From: a virus
Reading direction: 5' to 3' (one strand)
UHGV virus genome: UHGV-0135847
Length of the DNA stretch: 35,435 nt
How positions within the stretch are numbered: position 1 is the stretch's first letter; each line of letters opens with the position of its first letter. This document shows, piece by piece, positions 3,984 to 35,435 of this stretch. Both the position numbers and the translations under genes were made by a program. The notes under the pieces were generated by a model, which worked only from the letters and a program-made list of their open reading frames with translations, searched no databases and was not told where the DNA came from.

Positions 3984-4075
3984 CAGCTTAAACAAAACAC
4001 CAGATTAAACCCGAAAACCTGAAAACTATCCGCATTCGCGGAGGTATTCGCACACGTAAATAACGGAGATATAAA

Positions 4076-4492
4076 ATGAACGCAAAAGAAGAAGGCATTA
4101 TCGACACATTAAAAAAAATATCAGAAGCGGAAGATGAAATGGCTAAAGATGCCGTGAAGCGTAGCCAACATATGGCAGCACTTCACGCACTGACCATTGC
4201 AAAAATCACCGCTGACGCAGCCAAAATTATTGAGGAACAGAGCAAAGAAATCGACACTCTTAAAACACAGTCAACAGTTGCAGCCATGAATCCGTCCAGC
4301 ATTGGACGCTGCATTTATATTCTTGGTTCAGCAATGATGCTGCAATACACCATTATTGCCGAACTGCACGGCAAATACCTGATAACGCCTTACCACACAA
4401 AAGAGTCAGAGCTTCTGACAAATCTCCGCCTGATAGAACGCTCTCAAGCTGTATTCATTGATGACGCGCAACGTGCCGTATTTAACGCATAG
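4076..4492 (+). CDS. Hypothetical early protein
   Basis: 138-aa ORF with GGAG RBS upstream; no motif recognised. Confidence 0.5.
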   Translation: MNAKEEGIIDTLKKISEAEDEMAKDAVKRSQHMAALHALTIAKITADAAKIIEEQSKEIDTLKTQSTVAAMNPSSIGRCIYILGSAMMLQYTIIAELHGKYLITPYHTKESELLTNLRLIERSQAVFIDDAQRAVFNA

Positions 4493-4515
4493 GGTTACTG
4501 GACAAAGGGGGCGCA

Positions 4516-4719
4516 ATGGCAATTAAGCATTTTTCCGTCGTTCGCTTTACCTCCAGAGGGCGCGAATACGAGGTCGACGAACGCCTGATTACCACTATCG
4601 ACAAACATCGTTCGGAAAAGGATGCACACCACATCTACCTCACTGACGGCACTTACTTCTGCGCCACCAACGTGGCGCGAGTAAATCTTATCCGACAGGT
4701 ACAGGAGCCACGCAGATGA
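4516..4719 (+). CDS. Hypothetical early protein
   Basis: 67-aa ORF, stop overlaps next start. Confidence 0.4.
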   Translation: MAIKHFSVVRFTSRGREYEVDERLITTIDKHRSEKDAHHIYLTDGTYFCATNVARVNLIRQVQEPRR

Positions 4720-4982
4720 CCATTCTGGACTACATCGCTACTCATCCGGGGTGTAGCGGCGGAGAGATCACCGCAGCACTGAATACCCCAACCACAGCCA
4801 TTAATGCTGAGTTACGCCGACTTTGGCGCGGCGGCTTAGTCATCAGAACAAACCGCAGCACAGGTGGTCGCGCTCGCAAAACAGGAGGCCAGGCTTCTTA
4901 CCACGTAAACCCGATGCCGTTCGGGTGTAGCAATCCACTTACCAACATGTTTAACCAGCTACTGAAGGAAGCCAGAGCATGA
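4716..4982 (+). CDS. Hypothetical early protein, possibly winged-helix DNA binding
   Basis: 88 aa; N-terminal ILDYIATHPGCSGGEITAALN...INAELRRLWRGGLV pattern resembles a winged HTH; overlapping start/stop with neighbours. Confidence 0.45.
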   Translation: MTILDYIATHPGCSGGEITAALNTPTTAINAELRRLWRGGLVIRTNRSTGGRARKTGGQASYHVNPMPFGCSNPLTNMFNQLLKEARA

Positions 4983-5278
4983 GCACCATCAACCACCAGA
5001 AGCTACGCGAACTGGCATTTGCCCTGCAACGAATGGCAACGCCTCAAAAATTACTGGCATTTCGCGCAATGCTCTCGCCGTCTGCTGTGCTGGCACTGCT
5101 GGATCAGCTGGAGCACGCCAGAACCACGGCTCCTGCCATTCGCCTCACGCTCCATCATGAAATCGCTGATTTCTGCGCAACGCTGGGGGCACCTGGCGAA
5201 CCGGAAACGCCGGAAGCAATGCAGCAAGAGCTGCTGCAACGCATCGATAACGTTTTTGATTTTTTTCTGAACCAGTAA
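4979..5278 (+). CDS. Hypothetical early protein
   Basis: 99-aa ORF; followed by ~320 bp structured non-coding region. Confidence 0.45.
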   Translation: MSTINHQKLRELAFALQRMATPQKLLAFRAMLSPSAVLALLDQLEHARTTAPAIRLTLHHEIADFCATLGAPGEPETPEAMQQELLQRIDNVFDFFLNQ

Positions 5279-5400
5279 GAAACCAGAACATGCACACACA
5301 AAAAAACCGCTTGCCATGCCGCAATCGGTCAGGTTACATTTCCGCTGCACCTCATAAAACGGGTGCCGGGATTCTCAACCCGATACAGAGCAAAGCGCAT

Positions 5401-5421
5401 AACCGCGCAAGCGGTTTTTTT
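5401..5421 (+). terminator. Candidate intrinsic terminator (AACCGC-GCAA-GCGGTT hairpin with GNRA loop followed by T7 run)
   Basis: Sequence aaccgcgcaagcggttttttt read directly; located inside the early region between ORFs. Confidence 0.45.
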
Positions 5422-5600
5422 GTGCGTACTGTATTGCCACGTCTTTTTCGCGTCAGAATTATGGCGGGGCGTACGGGGCCGACTTCGGTCGGGCCGGATT
5501 CTTTGCTCTCCGGTGTTGAGAACCCTGTACGTCTCGCCACCCCGAGATTCTCAACTCTGGATGGTGAGTTATTTCTATCACCGAGCAAAGAGGCCACACC

Positions 5601-5831
5601 ATGGCAGACCGCAAACAGCACCGCGCTATCGCGGAGCGTCGTCACATCCAGACTGAAATCAACCGCAGACTTTCCCGCGCATCACGCGTCGCGCAAATCA
5701 TGCACATCAATATGCTGCATGAGCGCAGCCACGCACTATCAAACATTTATTCCGCCTCTGTTTTCAGCTATCTGGCGGATGATCTGCACGAGCTTCAACA
5801 GCTCATCCAGCAGCAAAACAAACTCCATTAA
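5601..5831 (+). CDS. Hypothetical small basic protein
   Basis: 76-aa ORF with AGAGG RBS 7 nt upstream. Confidence 0.4.
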   Translation: MADRKQHRAIAERRHIQTEINRRLSRASRVAQIMHINMLHERSHALSNIYSASVFSYLADDLHELQQLIQQQNKLH

Positions 5832-5903: not shown

Positions 5904-6293
5904 ATGATTGACGCTCATGACTTCACAAGATGGGTGCGCACACAGGACACCCGTCTGGCTCCCGTTCTTCAGGGGTTATTTGATCTCTACATCCGTGGTC
6001 GTGACAACAGAGCACGCACCACAAAACCGGAGAATGCAGACACCCTTTATTTCACAGTAGACGACTGCTACCGCGTGGATTTCACACCACACGGACTGGC
6101 GTTGCACTGCCTGACACCGCACGGCGAATCACTGCTGGCGTATTACGACTCCCCGGCCTCCGTATTTGCAGCAATGCTGGCGCATCGCACTGCTGGCGGG
6201 TGTGCCTCGCTGAGTGAATACACCGCTGAATTTAACCGCCTTTCCGTCCTCTTCTCGCAGGAGTGGCAGCGCGTGACGGGATACCAGCCATGA
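5904..6293 (+). CDS. Hypothetical protein, translationally coupled to replication gene A
   Basis: 129-aa ORF; stop TGA overlaps ATG of gene A at 6290 (ATGA). Confidence 0.5.
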   Translation: MIDAHDFTRWVRTQDTRLAPVLQGLFDLYIRGRDNRARTTKPENADTLYFTVDDCYRVDFTPHGLALHCLTPHGESLLAYYDSPASVFAAMLAHRTAGGCASLSEYTAEFNRLSVLFSQEWQRVTGYQP

Positions 6294-9130
6294 GTGCGTT
6301 TGCATGGAGCTGGAATGAACCACGACCAGCTATTGATCCGGCCAGATTTACGGAGCGCAGGCAGGAAACTGAAACCGACCTGCAACGCGCCATCCGTTAC
6401 TACCTTGAGGCGGACAAAAGGGCACAGGAAGAACAGGAAGCGAAGGAAGAAGCCTTTTTCGCACAATCCGCCATGGGTAAAAAACTCATGGCATCCCTTG
6501 AGGAAGCCGGACAGCGTGAAAAGCTGGCACAGAGCATCATCAGTAAGCGCCGGGCAACAGAACAAGACCCGGTAGCCCGTGCCTTTGCCACACTGAAGGC
6601 GCTTCCCGTTTATCTGCGAGAACCTCTGAGCCGCCACCTCTCTTTCCTGCGCAAGAAGCAGGAAGCCGATCGTCAGAAAGGCAAAAAGAGCTGGCAGGCG
6701 GAACGCTATACACGCGGAACCCTGCGCAAAATATTCGAACGTCTGGATCGCACTGACGGGCGCTGGCTGACACCTGGTTATCGCTCCCTTGCCGGACGCG
6801 AACGCCTGGACGATTTGCTTTACCTGCCGCAGCTCAACAAACACCAGATACAGACGCTGGCCACCATGACGGCGGCGATGTTCAGCAGCACCTTCGAAAA
6901 ACTCTGCGATGGCTTTGGCGCGACCGATGGCGAACTGACCATGGATGTAACGCTGAAGGCGTATCAGATGCTGGCCCGCATGGCGTTACACCTGCACATC
7001 ATGCCTCCACATTATGACGCACTGACAACAGATAAAGACCGGAGGAACGAACCGGACACGGAGCTGCTGCCGGGCGCAATCCTTCGCCTGACCTGTACGG
7101 AATGGTGGAAACGCAAACTGTGGCTGTTACGTTGCGAGTGGAGAGAAGAACAACTCCGCGCCGCCTGTCTGGTTTCCAGAAAAACATCGCCCTATCTGAG
7201 CCAGGACGCATTAAGCGAGTTTCGCGCACAGCGCGAGAAAACACGCGATTTCCTGAAAAGTTTCATGCTGGAAAACGAAGATGGGTTCACGATTGATCTC
7301 GAGACAGTGTATTACGCGGGAGTAAGTAACCCGGTTCACCGTAAGGCAGAAATGATGGCCACCATGAAGGGGCTGGAACTTCTGGCCGAAGCCCGTGGCG
7401 ACAAAGCGGTGTTTCTGACTGTCACCTGCCCGTCAAAATACCACGCCACAACAGAGAACGGTCATCCGAATCCCAAATGGAACGGGGCCACCATGCGCGA
7501 CTCCAGCGATTACCTGGTTAACACGTTTTTTGCGGCGGTCCGCAAGAAACTGAACCGCGACGGCCTGCGCTGGTATGGCATCCGCACGGTGGAGCCTCAC
7601 CATGACGGCACCGTGCACTGGCATATGATGGTCTTTGCTCATCCGGAAGAAATCGACACTATTGTGTCCCACACCCGCGATATTGCCATTCAGGAAGATC
7701 GTCACGAGCTGGGTGATGATATTACCCCACGCTTTAAGGCGGAGTACGTCGACGGCTCAAAAGGCACACCGACCAGCTACATCGCCACCTACATCGGGAA
7801 AAACCTGGACAGCCGTGCCGTGGATGGCATCGACCCGAAAACGGGCAAGCCACGCGTTGACCACGAAACCGGAAAATCAATGGCCGAGAGCGTGGAACGC
7901 GCCATCGGCTGGGCGCGCCTTCACCGGGTCCGCCAGTTCCAGTTCTTTGGCATCCCCTCCCGCCAGGTATGGCGTGAACTGCGCCGCCTTGCCAGCCAGA
8001 TGGCACGCAACCCGGAAGGCCCGCAACGGCTGAAGGATGACGCAATGGATGCGGTTCTTGCCGCCGCTGATGCCGGATGTTTTGCCACCTACATAGAGAA
8101 ACAGGGCGGCGTACTTGTTCCACGCAAAGACTACCTGATTCGCACCGCCTACGACCTCGCCGATGAGCTGAACGATTACGGCGAACAGAGCGTACAGATT
8201 TACGGGATCTGGTCACCACTCATCGGGGAATCCTCCCGTGTGTGCACGCATCCGGATAACTGGAAGCTGGTAAGACGCAAACCGGAAGCGGAAGACAGTG
8301 CCCGCGAAAATGGTTTTGACCTTCAGGGCGGCCCTGCCGCCCCTTGGACTCGTGGCAATAACTGTCCCCGTGTACAGGAAACGGACAACAACGGGACAGA
8401 ACAGCCGGAAGAACGGCCAGCAACGTGGCCGCAGCTCCCTGACGGCGTTGAAGTGAACGAATGGATGCGCTCACTGAAACGGCACGAACGCCGGGCGCTG
8501 ATGCGTTCGCTTCGTGACAAACAGGCAAAAAACAGCAGTGATGAAATGCAGAGCTGGACACAGAGCCGCAAACAGCAGCGGCCTTTGCCTGATAACCACG
8601 AATTACTCGCTAAAGAATGGCGGGAGTCTGCTGAATCTCTCGGCCTGCATATCGGTGAACAACAGATGCAGCACCTGTTACGGGGCGGCAGTCTGTACGT
8701 TGACGGCAGCATCATTGCACCGCAGGGATTTGAAATTGTACGCAAACCGGATACCCGCCCGGACAGCCGAATCACGCAGCTCTGGCAGCGCCTGAGCCGT
8801 AATCATGGCGTAAGCAGCACGGAGATCCGCCATAACCCGGTCGCCAGCTATCTGGCACAGCTGGGGGCATCAGACCCTGAAGCCGCCGCACGCCTGGCAT
8901 CCACACTTCAGCAGGACCAGAACACCATGAAAACACCCGTTACCGTGCTTTCTGACATGCTGCGCGCCATCCGCGACGCAGAGCACGCACAGAGAATCAG
9001 TGAGACCACTGAACGCGCCAGCCGCAAAGCAGACCTGCTGCGGGGTGGCCTGACCAGCGGAAACAAAAAACAGACAGAAACGGGACTCACGAATCCCGTA
9101 AATGACCAAAAAACGCGCAGCGATATATGA
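6290..9130 (+). CDS. A: Replication initiation protein A (P2 gpA-type HUH rolling-circle initiator endonuclease)
   Basis: Motifs GIRTVEPHHDGTVHWHMMVF (HUH) and YIATYIGKNLD (catalytic Tyr region) typical of P2/186 A proteins; start taken at ATG 6290 rather than upstream GTG 6263. Confidence 0.9.
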   Translation: MSAFAWSWNEPRPAIDPARFTERRQETETDLQRAIRYYLEADKRAQEEQEAKEEAFFAQSAMGKKLMASLEEAGQREKLAQSIISKRRATEQDPVARAFATLKALPVYLREPLSRHLSFLRKKQEADRQKGKKSWQAERYTRGTLRKIFERLDRTDGRWLTPGYRSLAGRERLDDLLYLPQLNKHQIQTLATMTAAMFSSTFEKLCDGFGATDGELTMDVTLKAYQMLARMALHLHIMPPHYDALTTDKDRRNEPDTELLPGAILRLTCTEWWKRKLWLLRCEWREEQLRAACLVSRKTSPYLSQDALSEFRAQREKTRDFLKSFMLENEDGFTIDLETVYYAGVSNPVHRKAEMMATMKGLELLAEARGDKAVFLTVTCPSKYHATTENGHPNPKWNGATMRDSSDYLVNTFFAAVRKKLNRDGLRWYGIRTVEPHHDGTVHWHMMVFAHPEEIDTIVSHTRDIAIQEDRHELGDDITPRFKAEYVDGSKGTPTSYIATYIGKNLDSRAVDGIDPKTGKPRVDHETGKSMAESVERAIGWARLHRVRQFQFFGIPSRQVWRELRRLASQMARNPEGPQRLKDDAMDAVLAAADAGCFATYIEKQGGVLVPRKDYLIRTAYDLADELNDYGEQSVQIYGIWSPLIGESSRVCTHPDNWKLVRRKPEAEDSARENGFDLQGGPAAPWTRGNNCPRVQETDNNGTEQPEERPATWPQLPDGVEVNEWMRSLKRHERRALMRSLRDKQAKNSSDEMQSWTQSRKQQRPLPDNHELLAKEWRESAESLGLHIGEQQMQHLLRGGSLYVDGSIIAPQGFEIVRKPDTRPDSRITQLWQRLSRNHGVSSTEIRHNPVASYLAQLGASDPEAAARLASTLQQDQNTMKTPVTVLSDMLRAIRDAEHAQRISETTERASRKADLLRGGLTSGNKKQTETGLTNPVNDQKTRSDI

Positions 9131-9178
9131 AGCGCGCACAAAACAGGCAAAAACGGGATTTCAGAATCCCGTAAACGA
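9078..9178. repeat. Two copies of a 28-bp element, each containing an 8-bp-arm palindrome (ACGGGAYT-N4-AATCCCGT), 73 bp apart, spanning the 3' end of A and the A-parM intergenic region
   Basis: aaacgggactcacgaatcccgtaaatga (9078-9105) vs aaacgggatttcagaatcccgtaaacga (9151-9178), 23/28 identical by eye. Confidence 0.4.
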
Positions 9179-9206
9179 TTAATTAATCAACATAAGGAAA
9201 AGCGAC

Positions 9207-10166
9207 ATGAAAATTTGTATCGACGACGGCTCCACCAACATCAAGCTGGCATGGACTGAGAACGGCGAACGCCGCAACGCCATCAGCCCGAACAGCTTCA
9301 AGTCGGAATGGTCTGCGCCGTTCGGTGGCACGCAGCCCGCGAACTACATGCTTGATGGCGTGCGCTATGGTTTTGATCCGGTCAGCGATCGCTTTGTCCA
9401 GACGACCGACACGCAATACCAGTACAGCGATGTGAATGTCATTGCCATTCATCACGCGCTGGTCAAATCAGGCATCACGCCACAGGAGGTGGATGTGGTT
9501 GTCACCCTGCCACTGAGCGAGTATTTCGACACAAACGCACAGCCGGACATGGCCAACATAAACCGCAAAAAAGCAAACGTTATGCGCCCGGTGGAATACC
9601 AGAACGGCGAAGCATTCACTATCCGTAATGTACGGGTTATGCCTGAATCCATTCCGGCTGGCTTTAAAGCACTGGCTGACATGAGTCCGTTTGAATCCCT
9701 GCTGATTGTGGATTTAGGTGGAACCACGCTGGATGTGGCAAAGGTTCAGGGACAACTGGCAGGTATCAGCCAGGTGTTTTGCGATCCACACGTAGGCGTT
9801 TCCCTGATGGCCGATGCAGTACTGTCGGTGATGGCCACTAACGGTATGCGTACCAGTCACCACATCGCCAATACCATTATCGAACATCGCCATGATGAAG
9901 CCTGGCTGCGCCAGCACATCTACAATGACGCGCATTACGCCAGCCTGATGGCGGTTATTCGTGAAAAGGAAGAAACACTGAAACAACGCGTGATCCGCGC
10001 GCTGGCGGGTTTTTCGGGTTACGGGCGGGTGATGGTTGTCGGTGGCGGGGCGGAGATTGTGGCACCCGCTATCCGCGAAGCCTGCGGAGTTAATGCGATT
10101 TTCATCGCGGACGGGGTGCCACAGTTTGCTCTGGTTAATGGGCTGTACGCAATGGACAAGGAGTAA
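9207..10166 (+). CDS. parM: ParM/StbA-like actin-type segregation ATPase
   Basis: N-terminus MKICIDDGSTNIKLAW and motifs VMPESIPAG, LIVDLGGTTLD, VVGGGAE closely follow plasmid R1 ParM (StbA) as recalled. Confidence 0.8.
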   Translation: MKICIDDGSTNIKLAWTENGERRNAISPNSFKSEWSAPFGGTQPANYMLDGVRYGFDPVSDRFVQTTDTQYQYSDVNVIAIHHALVKSGITPQEVDVVVTLPLSEYFDTNAQPDMANINRKKANVMRPVEYQNGEAFTIRNVRVMPESIPAGFKALADMSPFESLLIVDLGGTTLDVAKVQGQLAGISQVFCDPHVGVSLMADAVLSVMATNGMRTSHHIANTIIEHRHDEAWLRQHIYNDAHYASLMAVIREKEETLKQRVIRALAGFSGYGRVMVVGGGAEIVAPAIREACGVNAIFIADGVPQFALVNGLYAMDKE

Positions 10167-10170
10167 ACCA

Positions 10171-10482
10171 ATGACGACACCAACCAGACGAATAAGTTTC
10201 TATCTGAAGCCCGCCGCCGTCAAGAACGAAGGCGAAGCATGCGCCTGGCTGGACAGCCTTACACCAGAAGCCCGTAAAAACGGCCAACGCGTGGCTTTTC
10301 TGGCCGGGCTGGCGCTTCTGAAAATGAATCCGGCAGAGGCTTACCGACTGGCAGCATGGGCTGACGATGAGGCGTTATCAGTGACACAAACCAGGACAGA
10401 ACGCCTCCTGTCACAGCCAGTACCAACCGCACAGATAACCAGTCAGATGGCCGGAAATATCAGGGCGTTATTTCCTGAATAA
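10171..10482 (+). CDS. parR: ParR/StbB-like centromere-binding adaptor
   Basis: 103 aa starting 5 nt after parM; pattern RRISFYLKP...WLDSL...AFLAGLALL...ALFPE matches R1 ParR layout as recalled; ORF track lists it inside a longer out-of-context frame (10036..10482). Confidence 0.7.
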   Translation: MTTPTRRISFYLKPAAVKNEGEACAWLDSLTPEARKNGQRVAFLAGLALLKMNPAEAYRLAAWADDEALSVTQTRTERLLSQPVPTAQITSQMAGNIRALFPE

Positions 10483-10545
10483 CACAACGTCAGGGCGAGT
10501 TCGCCCTGATCTCCATCTCAGAACATAAACAAGAAGAGCGACTTA

Positions 10546-10929
10546 ATGAGCAAAATCAACTATCAGGCATTACGTGAACGTTATTCACCTGCACCAGTAC
10601 CAAAATGCCCTATTTGCGGCGAAGAAATGTCAATTCAGCGAATATCTGGAGCACAGGTTGTTTATGGCTGCTCCGGTTATGGTGATGATGGAGATTTCAA
10701 AATTGGTCGAACTCTTGCCGACGAACATTATGAAAAATCACGCGTAACAGTGTTGGATGTCGGGGATCCTGAAGTATTGGCGCTACTTGATTGGCTGGAA
10801 ACCAAAGACAACCGAATCGCTGAACTGGAAAAAATCGCCACTGACTATGCACTTAAATTCCAGAAAGCACAGGACGCATTAAAGTACGCCGCTTTGCTGC
10901 ATAGCAGGACAGCGCAGCTACAAGACTAA
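10546..10929 (+). CDS. Hypothetical protein with N-terminal Cys-rich (CPICG...YGC) zinc-ribbon-like segment and C-terminal coiled-coil-like tail
   Basis: 127-aa ORF; Cys pattern read from translation; function unknown. Confidence 0.5.
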   Translation: MSKINYQALRERYSPAPVPKCPICGEEMSIQRISGAQVVYGCSGYGDDGDFKIGRTLADEHYEKSRVTVLDVGDPEVLALLDWLETKDNRIAELEKIATDYALKFQKAQDALKYAALLHSRTAQLQD

Positions 10930-11019
10930 CTTAAAGCGGAAGATTAATACATGGTGAGTCGGGGTAATTTGTTTTTATCCCGACAAATAAACAAAAAAGT
11001 GGACTATCTCTGTAGTATC

Positions 11020-11550
11020 TTATTCAGCATCGTCTCGTGCAGTCTGTGCATACGTCACAACAACGCCCAATGCATTAGTTTTCTTTTCAACATAGATAAT
11101 ATTGTCATATTCATAGTTACCATACGGATAGCAAATAAGAATATTTTTATGCAGATCGGGATCATCAACAAACGCTCCGGAACAGCTTCTTGAACTACCG
11201 GATGTATACTCATACGGTGCAACATATGATGATGTTAGTCCTGGTAAAAAATAAGTCACCATCATAAGAGGGATAATCAGGAATATCCCTGTAAGAATGC
11301 AAGAGCCAGCATAAACCTTCAGGTATTCCGACAGTCCTTTCCAGCCACTTTGCTTCACTACCCCCCTCTTCACCAGAAACAAGGAGAAGAAAAAGGACAT
11401 ACCCATACTACACAAGATGTAATAATTGGATATACGCGAATTAAGATATGTAATCCTGTAGATATCTGCCCTCCACCAGTAAAAGAGGAAAATAATCCCT
11501 AGCACTGAAACAGTCATGCAAATCAAATAAGGATATGAATCTTTCTTCAT
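11020..11550 (-). CDS. AT-rich cargo gene encoding a polytopic inner-membrane protein of unknown function
   Basis: 176 aa; three hydrophobic segments (approx. residues 10-30, 42-60, 82-105) then a soluble Tyr/Gly-rich C-terminal domain; DNA visibly AT-rich versus flanking phage genes; opposite strand to neighbours. Confidence 0.6.
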   Translation of the reverse strand: MKKDSYPYLICMTVSVLGIIFLFYWWRADIYRITYLNSRISNYYILCSMGMSFFFSLFLVKRGVVKQSGWKGLSEYLKVYAGSCILTGIFLIIPLMMVTYFLPGLTSSYVAPYEYTSGSSRSCSGAFVDDPDLHKNILICYPYGNYEYDNIIYVEKKTNALGVVVTYAQTARDDAE

Positions 11551-33413: not shown

Positions 33414-34553
33414 GTGGGAAACAATAAAGTGAAATTAGGAAGAAATGATAAGTGCTGGTGTAATTCAGGACTTAAGTATAAAAAGTGCCATCTTGGTCGA
33501 GACCGTGAAACTCCGGTATCCAAAGCCGAGGCACTGAAATTTTCAAAGTCTCTCTCGCAGAGAAAGGCATGTTATGCGCCAGCATCCATGCACGAAGATT
33601 GTGATAAACGCATCGTTCAGGCGCATACGATATCTAAGAGCAGTAGCCTTAAGGCGATCGCCGACTCCAGCAATCACGTCATGGGGGTGATAATGAACTT
33701 AGCAAGCCTGATGAGAAACAACGGAAAATGGCTTCCCGAGAAGATCGGTATCAATCAGGCATCCACTTTTACAGGATTTTGTGCAGTTCATGACAGAATC
33801 TTGTTTTCATGCCTAGAGAACGAAAAATTTACAGGCACGGACGAGCAGTGCTTTGCCTTAATGTTTCGTTCATTGTCTAAAGAAATTTACGCCAAAGAAG
33901 GGGGAGTGCTATCTTCCGATTTTGCTAAAAATGCCGATAAAGGAAAGCTACAAGTTGAACAGTATTATATTCAGAAATTAATCGACCAGCACCAAAGTGG
34001 CTTAAATGCAGCAATAATTGAATTAAATAATCTTAAAACTAGCCTCGACCGCATCCTACTTAGCAGGCAATTTTCAGAAATTGAAAGTGTTATCTTCACT
34101 TTTGCAGAGCCTTTACCAATTGTAGTTTCGTCAATTCTTTCACCGGAGAGGGATTTCGATGGGACCAAAATTCAGGATTTGAGCGATCTTACAGTGTCGG
34201 CGGAACAAGTATGTTTCAATGCTTTTTCCTGCGGAGGTAAGGGATATGTAGTGTTCAGTTGGCTGAGAACTTCAACAATTATCAGACGTTTTATACGGAC
34301 ACTAATTAAGATCCCGGCTAACAGGATGTTCAATACCCTTCTGTATTTTTTCTTCACAAAGGCCGAAAATACATATTCATCCCCTGAGTGGTGGGACAGG
34401 CTCAGTGATAAACAGCGAGAGAATATCGGCAACATGATTATGTCAGGGGTTGAATTTTTTGGCAGACCTACATCACAGGTTGATCATTCCGTTGATTATA
34501 ACGCCGCTGCACTTGAAGAGATAACATGCAGCAACAACGAAATTTGCAGCTGA
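33414..34553 (+). CDS. AT-rich cargo gene: protein with N-terminal SEC-C zinc-binding motif and ~340-aa uncharacterised domain (start GTG 33414 or GTG 33429)
   Basis: GRNDKCWCNSGLKYKKCH matches the SecA C-terminal SEC-C motif GRNDPCPCGSGKKYKQCH; rest of protein unrecognised; DNA visibly AT-rich. Confidence 0.65.
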   Translation: MGNNKVKLGRNDKCWCNSGLKYKKCHLGRDRETPVSKAEALKFSKSLSQRKACYAPASMHEDCDKRIVQAHTISKSSSLKAIADSSNHVMGVIMNLASLMRNNGKWLPEKIGINQASTFTGFCAVHDRILFSCLENEKFTGTDEQCFALMFRSLSKEIYAKEGGVLSSDFAKNADKGKLQVEQYYIQKLIDQHQSGLNAAIIELNNLKTSLDRILLSRQFSEIESVIFTFAEPLPIVVSSILSPERDFDGTKIQDLSDLTVSAEQVCFNAFSCGGKGYVVFSWLRTSTIIRRFIRTLIKIPANRMFNTLLYFFFTKAENTYSSPEWWDRLSDKQRENIGNMIMSGVEFFGRPTSQVDHSVDYNAAALEEITCSNNEICS

Positions 34554-35294: not shown

Positions 35295-35435
35295 ATGTCG
35301 CAAAAATCGCTTACGGCCATCACGTTCTGCGTGACGGTAATCCTCATCATCTGGATGCTACACGGTTCGCTGTGTGAAATACGGATGAGCTTCTGGGGAG
35401 CGGAGTTTGCGGCGTTCTTACAGTGTAAGCAGTAA
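35295..35435 (+). CDS. hok: Hok/Gef-family type I toxin (46 aa), not in ORF track
   Basis: MSQKSLTAITFCVTVILIIWMLHGSLCEIRMSFWGAEFAAFLQCKQ: TM helix plus SLCEIR and E(F/L)AAFL motifs as in E. coli HokA and R1 Hok; AAGGAG RBS 8 nt upstream; stop is the last codon of the window. Confidence 0.7.
   Translation: MSQKSLTAITFCVTVILIIWMLHGSLCEIRMSFWGAEFAAFLQCKQ

Follow-up and report, generated by a model that had tools for sequence, protein, structure and literature searches.

An R1-type parM/parR cassette behind the replication gene of P88-like prophages of Escherichia coli: conservation, a candidate centromere and a possible role in partitioning a transient phage circle

The window analysed here is a stretch of viral DNA of 35,435 nucleotides (UHGV virus genome UHGV-0135847), in which two genes at 9207-10482 encode an actin-like ATPase, ParM, and a small DNA-binding protein, ParR. 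An earlier reading based on the letters of the DNA (hereafter the sequence-only reading) had likened these two open reading frames (ORFs) to StbA/ParM and ParR of plasmid R1 and had placed the pair directly after the phage replication gene A. Its coordinates were exact, and only 76 bp separate the end of gene A at 9130 from the start of parM. The features of the locus are the following:

6263..9130, + strand: gene A, replication, rolling-circle initiator (Pfam Phage_GPA, E 1.2e-131; RefSeq start at 6290 and name 'replication endonuclease')
9064..9105, no strand assigned: repeat 1, candidate centromere (parC-like), within the last gene A codons, with a palindrome at 9080-9099 (ACGGGAyT-N4-AATCCCGT)
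9137..9178, no strand assigned: repeat 2, candidate centromere, between gene A and parM, with a palindrome at 9153-9172, its end 34 bp upstream of the parM start
9194..9199, + strand: Shine-Dalgarno-like AAGGAA, 7 nt before the parM ATG, near-invariant in relatives
9207..10166, + strand: parM, actin-like segregation ATPase of 319 amino acids with an ATG start (Pfam; R1 ParM in PDB)
10171..10482, + strand: parR, predicted ribbon-helix-helix centromere-binding adaptor of 103 amino acids (PF10784; PHROG 2515; profile match to 2jd3)

ParM residues 1-157 matched Pfam StbA_N (E 1.8e-82) and residues 159-316 the Pfam ParM C-terminal domain (E 8.3e-68), and the full-length protein aligned to the R1 ParM structures 1mwk/4a62 with an E-value of 3e-92 and approximately 52% identity. 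The nucleotide-binding motifs DDGSTNIK, DLGGTTLD and GGGAE, which serve phosphate and adenosine binding, were all retained. The parR gene starts with an ATG at 10171, 4 nt past the parM stop codon, in agreement with RefSeq; the program-made ORF list opens this frame at a TTG at 10036, overlapping parM. The ParR sequence matched Pfam PF10784 Plasmid_stab_B (E 2.1e-24) and PHROG 2515, 'partition protein' (E 8e-58). A single-sequence phmmer search with ParR against PDB gave no match, and the ribbon-helix-helix crystal structure of pB171 ParR, 2jd3, was reached only with a profile that combined the window ParR with two plasmid ParRs and four related ParRs of other P2-like prophages (E 4e-15). No NCBIfam model passed its cut-off for either protein. 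In the profile comparison that the sequence-only reading had proposed, both the ParM and the ParR families were matched strongly, and it is essentially certain that 9207-10482 encodes a genuine type II (R1-type) ParM/ParR segregation pair.

The resemblance to parMRC (stbAB) of R1/NR1 and to the system of pB171 extends to the layout of the locus. ParM has the same length, ParR belongs to the same Pfam family, parM is followed by parR across a tight junction and repeats lie immediately upstream of parM. The differences are that the carrier is an integrating P2-family phage rather than a low-copy plasmid, that the window ParR has 103 amino acids compared with 138-140 in the plasmids examined, with a shorter, hypervariable linker, and that the window ParM has diverged by more than 40% from plasmid ParMs (best 5000 plasmid records).

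The chromosome of E. coli S87 (NZ_CM151376) was 100% identical to the window over 9000-10700; there the cassette lies in a P2-family prophage adjoining yecA/tyrP, the structural genes of which follow the P2-type order (RefSeq annotation of the S87 locus). The DNA of gene A, parM and parR was 96-98% identical to that of P88, P884B11, phiSM and 520873, and 92-98% identical across 14 deposited phage records that include P88, Xuanwuvirus P884B11, Citrobacter phiSM, 520873, 503458, PhiR44_2 and Chuche. Judged by sequence identity and gene order, the window is a P88-like phage (genus Xuanwuvirus, P2 family). At a coverage of at least 80%, parM was present in 1279 of 5426 complete E. coli genomes (24%), UTI89 and O157 strains among them, and gene A of the matching type in 1322, so that nearly every prophage of the P88-like lineage appears to have the cassette.

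Among 50,697 phage records, R1-type ParM was confined to P88-like phages and the phage-plasmid D6, the ParM of which was 47.8% identical to that of the window. D6 differs in being a 91-kb P1-like phage; prophages of P1-like phages are plasmids, and partition there has its classical role. Of the best 5000 plasmid records, six were prophage copies and the other 4994 had less than 60% identity to ParM. The GC content of the cassette (0.52-0.56) equals that of the phage backbone, and the genes just downstream have 0.40-0.43. Taken together, distribution, divergence and composition indicate that the cassette is a conserved, long-resident and routine part of the P88-like lineage. The sequence-only reading had started from the premise that P2-family phages do without partition systems, which does not hold for a module found in 24% of the E. 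coli genomes and 14 phage records and reported by Rousset et al. (2022; PMC9122126). It had also allowed that the module might turn out to be a routine component with a known role; routine it is, lineage-wide, but no known role came with it.

Some database entries deserve separate mention. A contig labelled Vagococcus sp., a Firmicute (NZ_JBQPOM010000071.1), carried a 97%-identical parM with its flanks and most likely represents enterobacterial contamination or a mislabelled assembly. The plasmid records NZ_CP110658.1 (Salmonella, 272 kb) and NZ_MK439959.1 (E. coli, 228 kb) hold gene A-parM-parR, presumably as an integrated prophage, and further matches to the three genes in 'plasmid' records of 0.4-1.4 Mb may be chromosome fragments. 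A ParM scan of genome contigs gave three near-identical loci only.

Outside this lineage, P2-like prophages of Plesiomonas, Hafnia, Serratia and Enterobacter encode ParMs with 54-63% identity at the corresponding position. The order in all four genera was gene A, parM and a PF10784 ParR, followed by the portal and terminase genes. The genes carried after parR differed: Serratia has HicAB there, Enterobacter has a KAP NTPase, and other E. coli carry an ASCH-domain gene. Megabase contigs also gave ParM homologues with 49-50% identity, which were rejected as prophage genes; those examined lay in one integrative and conjugative element (ICE) and one integrated plasmid. In a crude neighbour-joining tree the phage ParMs stood apart from plasmid ParMs as two basal groups, the monophyly of which was not established. 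The suggestion of plasmid-derived cargo made in the sequence-only reading is not supported in any recent sense, given that no plasmid ParM exceeded 60% identity, that the GC content is backbone-like and that the position is the same in four other genera.

Population data were provided by an IMG/VR scan with ParM, which returned 80 loci, all 98-100% identical. The parM ORF was intact, with 319 amino acids, in 90 of the 90 loci that hold a complete parM, and in these copies the mean pairwise nonsynonymous (dN) and synonymous (dS) divergences were 0.0044 and 0.082 (dN/dS 0.053). The parR gene was intact in 83 of 84 loci. The low dN/dS and the uniformly intact parM ORFs rule out decay of the cassette. 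In one IMG/VR locus (IMGVR_UViG_2690315922_000015, 4001-5380; L081) the tblastn match to ParM covered 1380 bases instead of 957, which suggests an insertion in or beside parM.

Variation in ParR was unevenly distributed. Among the 42 full-length sequences of 43 alleles, the N-terminus MTTPTRRISFYLKP, the predicted DNA-reading strand, was constant save for one RRISL variant, and the C-terminal motif NIxxxFP was present in every one. The linker at residues ~65-95 was hypervariable, and whole allele classes shared just 42-55% identity. The window ParR ends in NIRALFPE, which aligned with the corresponding ends of two plasmid ParRs (N..LFP/N..MF) and of four diverged phage ParRs. From the R1 literature and structure 4a62 we take the ParR C-terminus to be the ParM-binding position, and on this alignment the motif appears to be kept there as in R1/NR1 and pB171. 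Two constant ends joined by a free linker should be the pattern expected of a working adaptor. Linker and second helix differed strongly between allele classes while the adjoining ParM kept 98-99% identity (parR 10171-10482, loci L005-L092), and DNA alignments broke within parR at recurring points. Such a pattern points to recombination or to diversifying selection, perhaps as an effect of incompatibility.

The sole repeat structure near parM consists of two 42-nt direct repeats, 81% alike and 73 bp apart. Each holds a 20-bp palindrome made of 8-bp arms (ACGGGATT/AATCCCGT) and a 4-nt centre, and the pair straddles the gene A stop codon. In the 35-kb window the exact palindrome pattern occurred at these two sites only. 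Across 61 distinct haplotypes most arm positions were near-invariant, three arm positions had common variants and the centres varied. In the Plesiomonas relative, the flanks of which were otherwise unalignable, two 26-nt repeats with a CGGGA...CCCG core lie 72 bp apart, one of them within the last part of gene A. In Serratia and Enterobacter the inverted repeats are longer, and the GGCAAAAACGGGA motif of the window recurs at the Serratia locus. The junction sequence between gene A and parM was confined to the 14 phage records that bear parMR. On this evidence it is reasonable to regard the paired palindromes as a candidate centromere, differing from R1-type centromeres in that these are iteron arrays around a promoter, whereas the window has two palindromes of which one lies in a coding region.

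A simple consensus scan found no sigma-70 promoter in 8800-11100, and no + strand terminator was found between gene A and parM. On reading of the sequence, no good -35/-10 pair was seen at 9153-9206, which argues weakly against the cassette having a promoter of its own as R1-type systems do. In R1 the promoter lies within parC, whereas the window cassette has no recognisable promoter. With neither a recognisable promoter nor a + strand terminator after gene A, the cassette apparently closes the early replication operon, and co-transcription of parMR with gene A is probable.

In complete E. coli genomes, 1441 of the 1443 parM places were chromosomal. One circular PLSDB record of 34,461 bp (NZ_CP148288.1, strain Z1323PEC0009) contains an entire P88-like phage, including int, parMR and hok, and could be a prophage in the plasmid state or excised replicating DNA assembled as a circle. 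Parts of its 520-bp attP junction were found in 431 complete E. coli genomes, and in none of these did a single place give a coverage of at least 80%. A steady plasmid state is therefore at best rare. The lineage encodes a tyrosine integrase, and the sole replication protein found was of the rolling-circle GPA type. An extrachromosomal prophage, a plasmid-type replicon and independence of integration, the properties of a phage-plasmid, were not what we observed. The S87 prophage is itself probably unable to excise, because its integrase is split by a transposase of the IS3 family, with two partial integrase pseudogene pieces flanking the insertion sequence (IS) (RefSeq; L001 9769-12003). The window starts inside this IS, and its first ~1002 positions include only a 144-bp 5' fragment of the integrase gene (~859-1002). 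The int gene named in the sequence-only reading is only a fragment of the integrase split by the IS3 element. The hok-like gene that it had placed at the right edge was found:

35295-35435, + strand: Hok/Gef-like ORF (…SLCEIR…EFAAF…), truncated at the end of the window; its counterpart in the circular record NZ_CP148288.1 carries the annotation Hok/Gef

With parMR and this gene, the lineage has homologues of both stability modules of R1.

A precedent for partition in a normally integrated element is srpMRC of the SXT/R391 ICEs, which reduces loss of the R391 ICE once excised and is switched on only around the time of excision (Carraro et al., 2015; PMC4489591). Like the P88-like phages, these elements combine an actin-type partition system with replication of the excised form by a rolling-circle enzyme. 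Expression together with mobility functions, rather than constitutively, would be a further likeness if the cassette is transcribed as we suppose, and both have a toxin-antitoxin or killer companion, hipAB in the ICE and hok in the phage lineage. The two differ in that SrpM is distant from R1 ParM and no ParR domain is recognisable in SrpR (PMC4489591), whereas the window proteins are orthodox R1-type, and in that srpMRC belongs to a conjugative element and has a demonstrated function, whereas the phage module is known from sequence.

By analogy with SrpMRC, we tentatively propose as the leading possibility that the cassette partitions a transient extrachromosomal phage circle, so that both daughter cells would inherit the phage before integration or lysis. 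ParM and ParR would be made from the tail of the early replication operon, behind gene A. Because of this position, expression of parMR would coincide with the presence of the phage as an extrachromosomal circle, following infection or excision, and would be absent from the repressed lysogen. ParR dimers would bind the two 20-bp palindromes astride the gene A stop codon, and the constant NIxxxFP tail of ParR would capture the ends of ATP-ParM filaments. The growing filaments may then drive apart the sister circles produced by A-dependent rolling-circle replication, and the phage would be kept in both daughter cells until it integrates or the cell lyses.

Several observations weigh against this proposal. 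The candidate centromere has two sites only, compared with ten iterons in R1 parC, and the intergenic region showed no excess conservation, with a diversity of 0.060 against 0.05-0.06 at synonymous (third-codon) positions. On the minus strand, each palindrome also scores as a hairpin resembling an intrinsic terminator and is followed by a T-run; no minus-strand gene converges on these hairpins. Within the clade the N-terminus of ParR is almost constant, which leaves nothing to covary with the palindromes, and the simple consensus scan would miss a weak or activator-dependent promoter. The gain from partition is not obvious for a phage bound to lyse its cell, and we found no functional study of a P2-like, Xuanwuvirus or P88 ParM in the literature.

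Persistence of the phage as an indefinite low-copy plasmid, with the cassette and hok together replacing integration as in P1, D6 and N15, was put forward in the sequence-only reading and is also raised by Rousset et al. (2022; PMC9122126). The complete circular phage NZ_CP148288.1, with int, parMR and hok, and the 48%-identical ParM of the phage-plasmid D6 fit this idea. So does the established union of parMRC with hok/sok on R1. We nevertheless regard it as distinctly improbable, and episomal persistence as a steady state is not favoured, since all but two of the parM places are chromosomal and the attP junction was split in all 431 genomes that have its halves. The lineage, moreover, has a tyrosine integrase and a rolling-circle A protein in place of any theta-type plasmid replicon, and a lone circular contig can be excised replicating phage DNA caught by the assembler. 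A heritable, non-integrated 'carrier' state, in which the actin-like spindle, perhaps with hok, would partition the circle for several generations before the phage integrates or lyses the cell, or in hosts with an occupied attB, is to our mind a long shot. If it existed, it would add to integration and the true plasmid prophage a third, intermediate temperate strategy, and the hypervariability of the ParR linker would reflect incompatibility-driven diversification among co-resident phages.

ParM filaments might instead organise or move replicating phage DNA for replication or packaging in the lytic cycle, with inheritance by daughter cells beside the point. The model for this is the Corynebacterium glutamicum prophage CGP3, in which the actin-like protein AlpC and its adaptor AlpA are needed for efficient viral DNA replication (PMC4446434, PMC5539076). 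There too an integrated prophage encodes an actin-like filament former and a DNA-binding adaptor for sites upstream of the operon (alpS), and a cassette that lies directly behind the replication initiator gene A, is apparently co-transcribed with it and is under strong purifying selection in an inducible, plaque-forming phage would suit such a role. Yet around three quarters of E. coli P2-like phages reportedly replicate without any such system, and the window proteins are orthodox R1-type partition proteins, not divergent like Alp; AlpC is a highly divergent actin from another host phylum, related to the window proteins by the actin fold only, and it has been shown to act in the transport of viral DNA and in the efficiency of its replication. 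On balance we consider lytic positioning rather unlikely. Least credible, and very improbable indeed, is that the cassette has no role for the phage, being a decaying plasmid relic or a module that benefits the host or acts by incompatibility against incoming plasmids of similar centromere, with ParR chiefly a repressor. The cassette does lie at the edge of the accessory hotspot between gpA and gpQ, and the authors of the phiSM paper list the gene as a 'fitness' factor only (PMC6456863). Such a relic is hard to reconcile with a dN/dS of 0.05, intact parM ORFs throughout, a position constant across five genera and backbone-like GC content. The phage ParR was just 19-30% identical to the plasmid ParRs compared, which makes cross-binding unlikely, and PADLOC defence models gave no match to ParM, ParR or the two ORFs downstream.

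As a sequence observation the cassette is ordinary, and both the observation and the persistence hypothesis are already in print. Rousset et al. (2022), who studied the gpA-gpQ locus of E. coli P2-like prophages, noted that 'around a fourth of P2-like phages' have a putative partition system and might persist as plasmids (PMC9122126), and both genes are annotated in RefSeq and PHROGs. The additions made here are the candidate centromere, the apparent co-transcription with gene A, the ParR conservation pattern, the selection statistics, the synteny across genera and the numerical evidence against a steady plasmid state. What makes the module of interest is that a plasmid spindle under strong purifying selection is present in about one quarter of E. 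coli genomes, in a phage that integrates and replicates by rolling circle. If it does partition a transient circle, the lesson of SrpMRC for ICEs would extend to phages, as 'integrated' elements needing plasmid-like inheritance functions, with a bearing on lysogenisation efficiency, prophage stability and pseudolysogeny.

Downstream of parR, the accessory stretch at 10546-11550 contains an ead/Ea22-like gene, incomplete according to RefSeq, and a minus-strand membrane-protein gene of 0.40-0.43 GC that RefSeq marks as frameshifted. Other features of the window lie further from the cassette:

5347-5421, + strand: isrK (Rfam, gathering level, 63 bits)
5457-5544, + strand: C4 antisense RNA (Rfam, gathering level, 78.5 bits)
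5601-5831: 'derepression protein' ORF of 76 amino acids, directly downstream of the isrK and C4 matches
33414-34553, + strand: low-GC ORF of 379 amino acids between the tail genes and ogr

The isrK/C4 matches and the derepression ORF make up a P1/P7-style antirepressor module controlled by antisense RNA within a P2-family phage. The 379-amino-acid protein has a cysteine-rich N-terminus (CWCNSGLKYKKCH) and gave weak PADLOC matches to E2-like models, and its gene, located at the second P2 hotspot, may be a moron or a candidate for a defence function.

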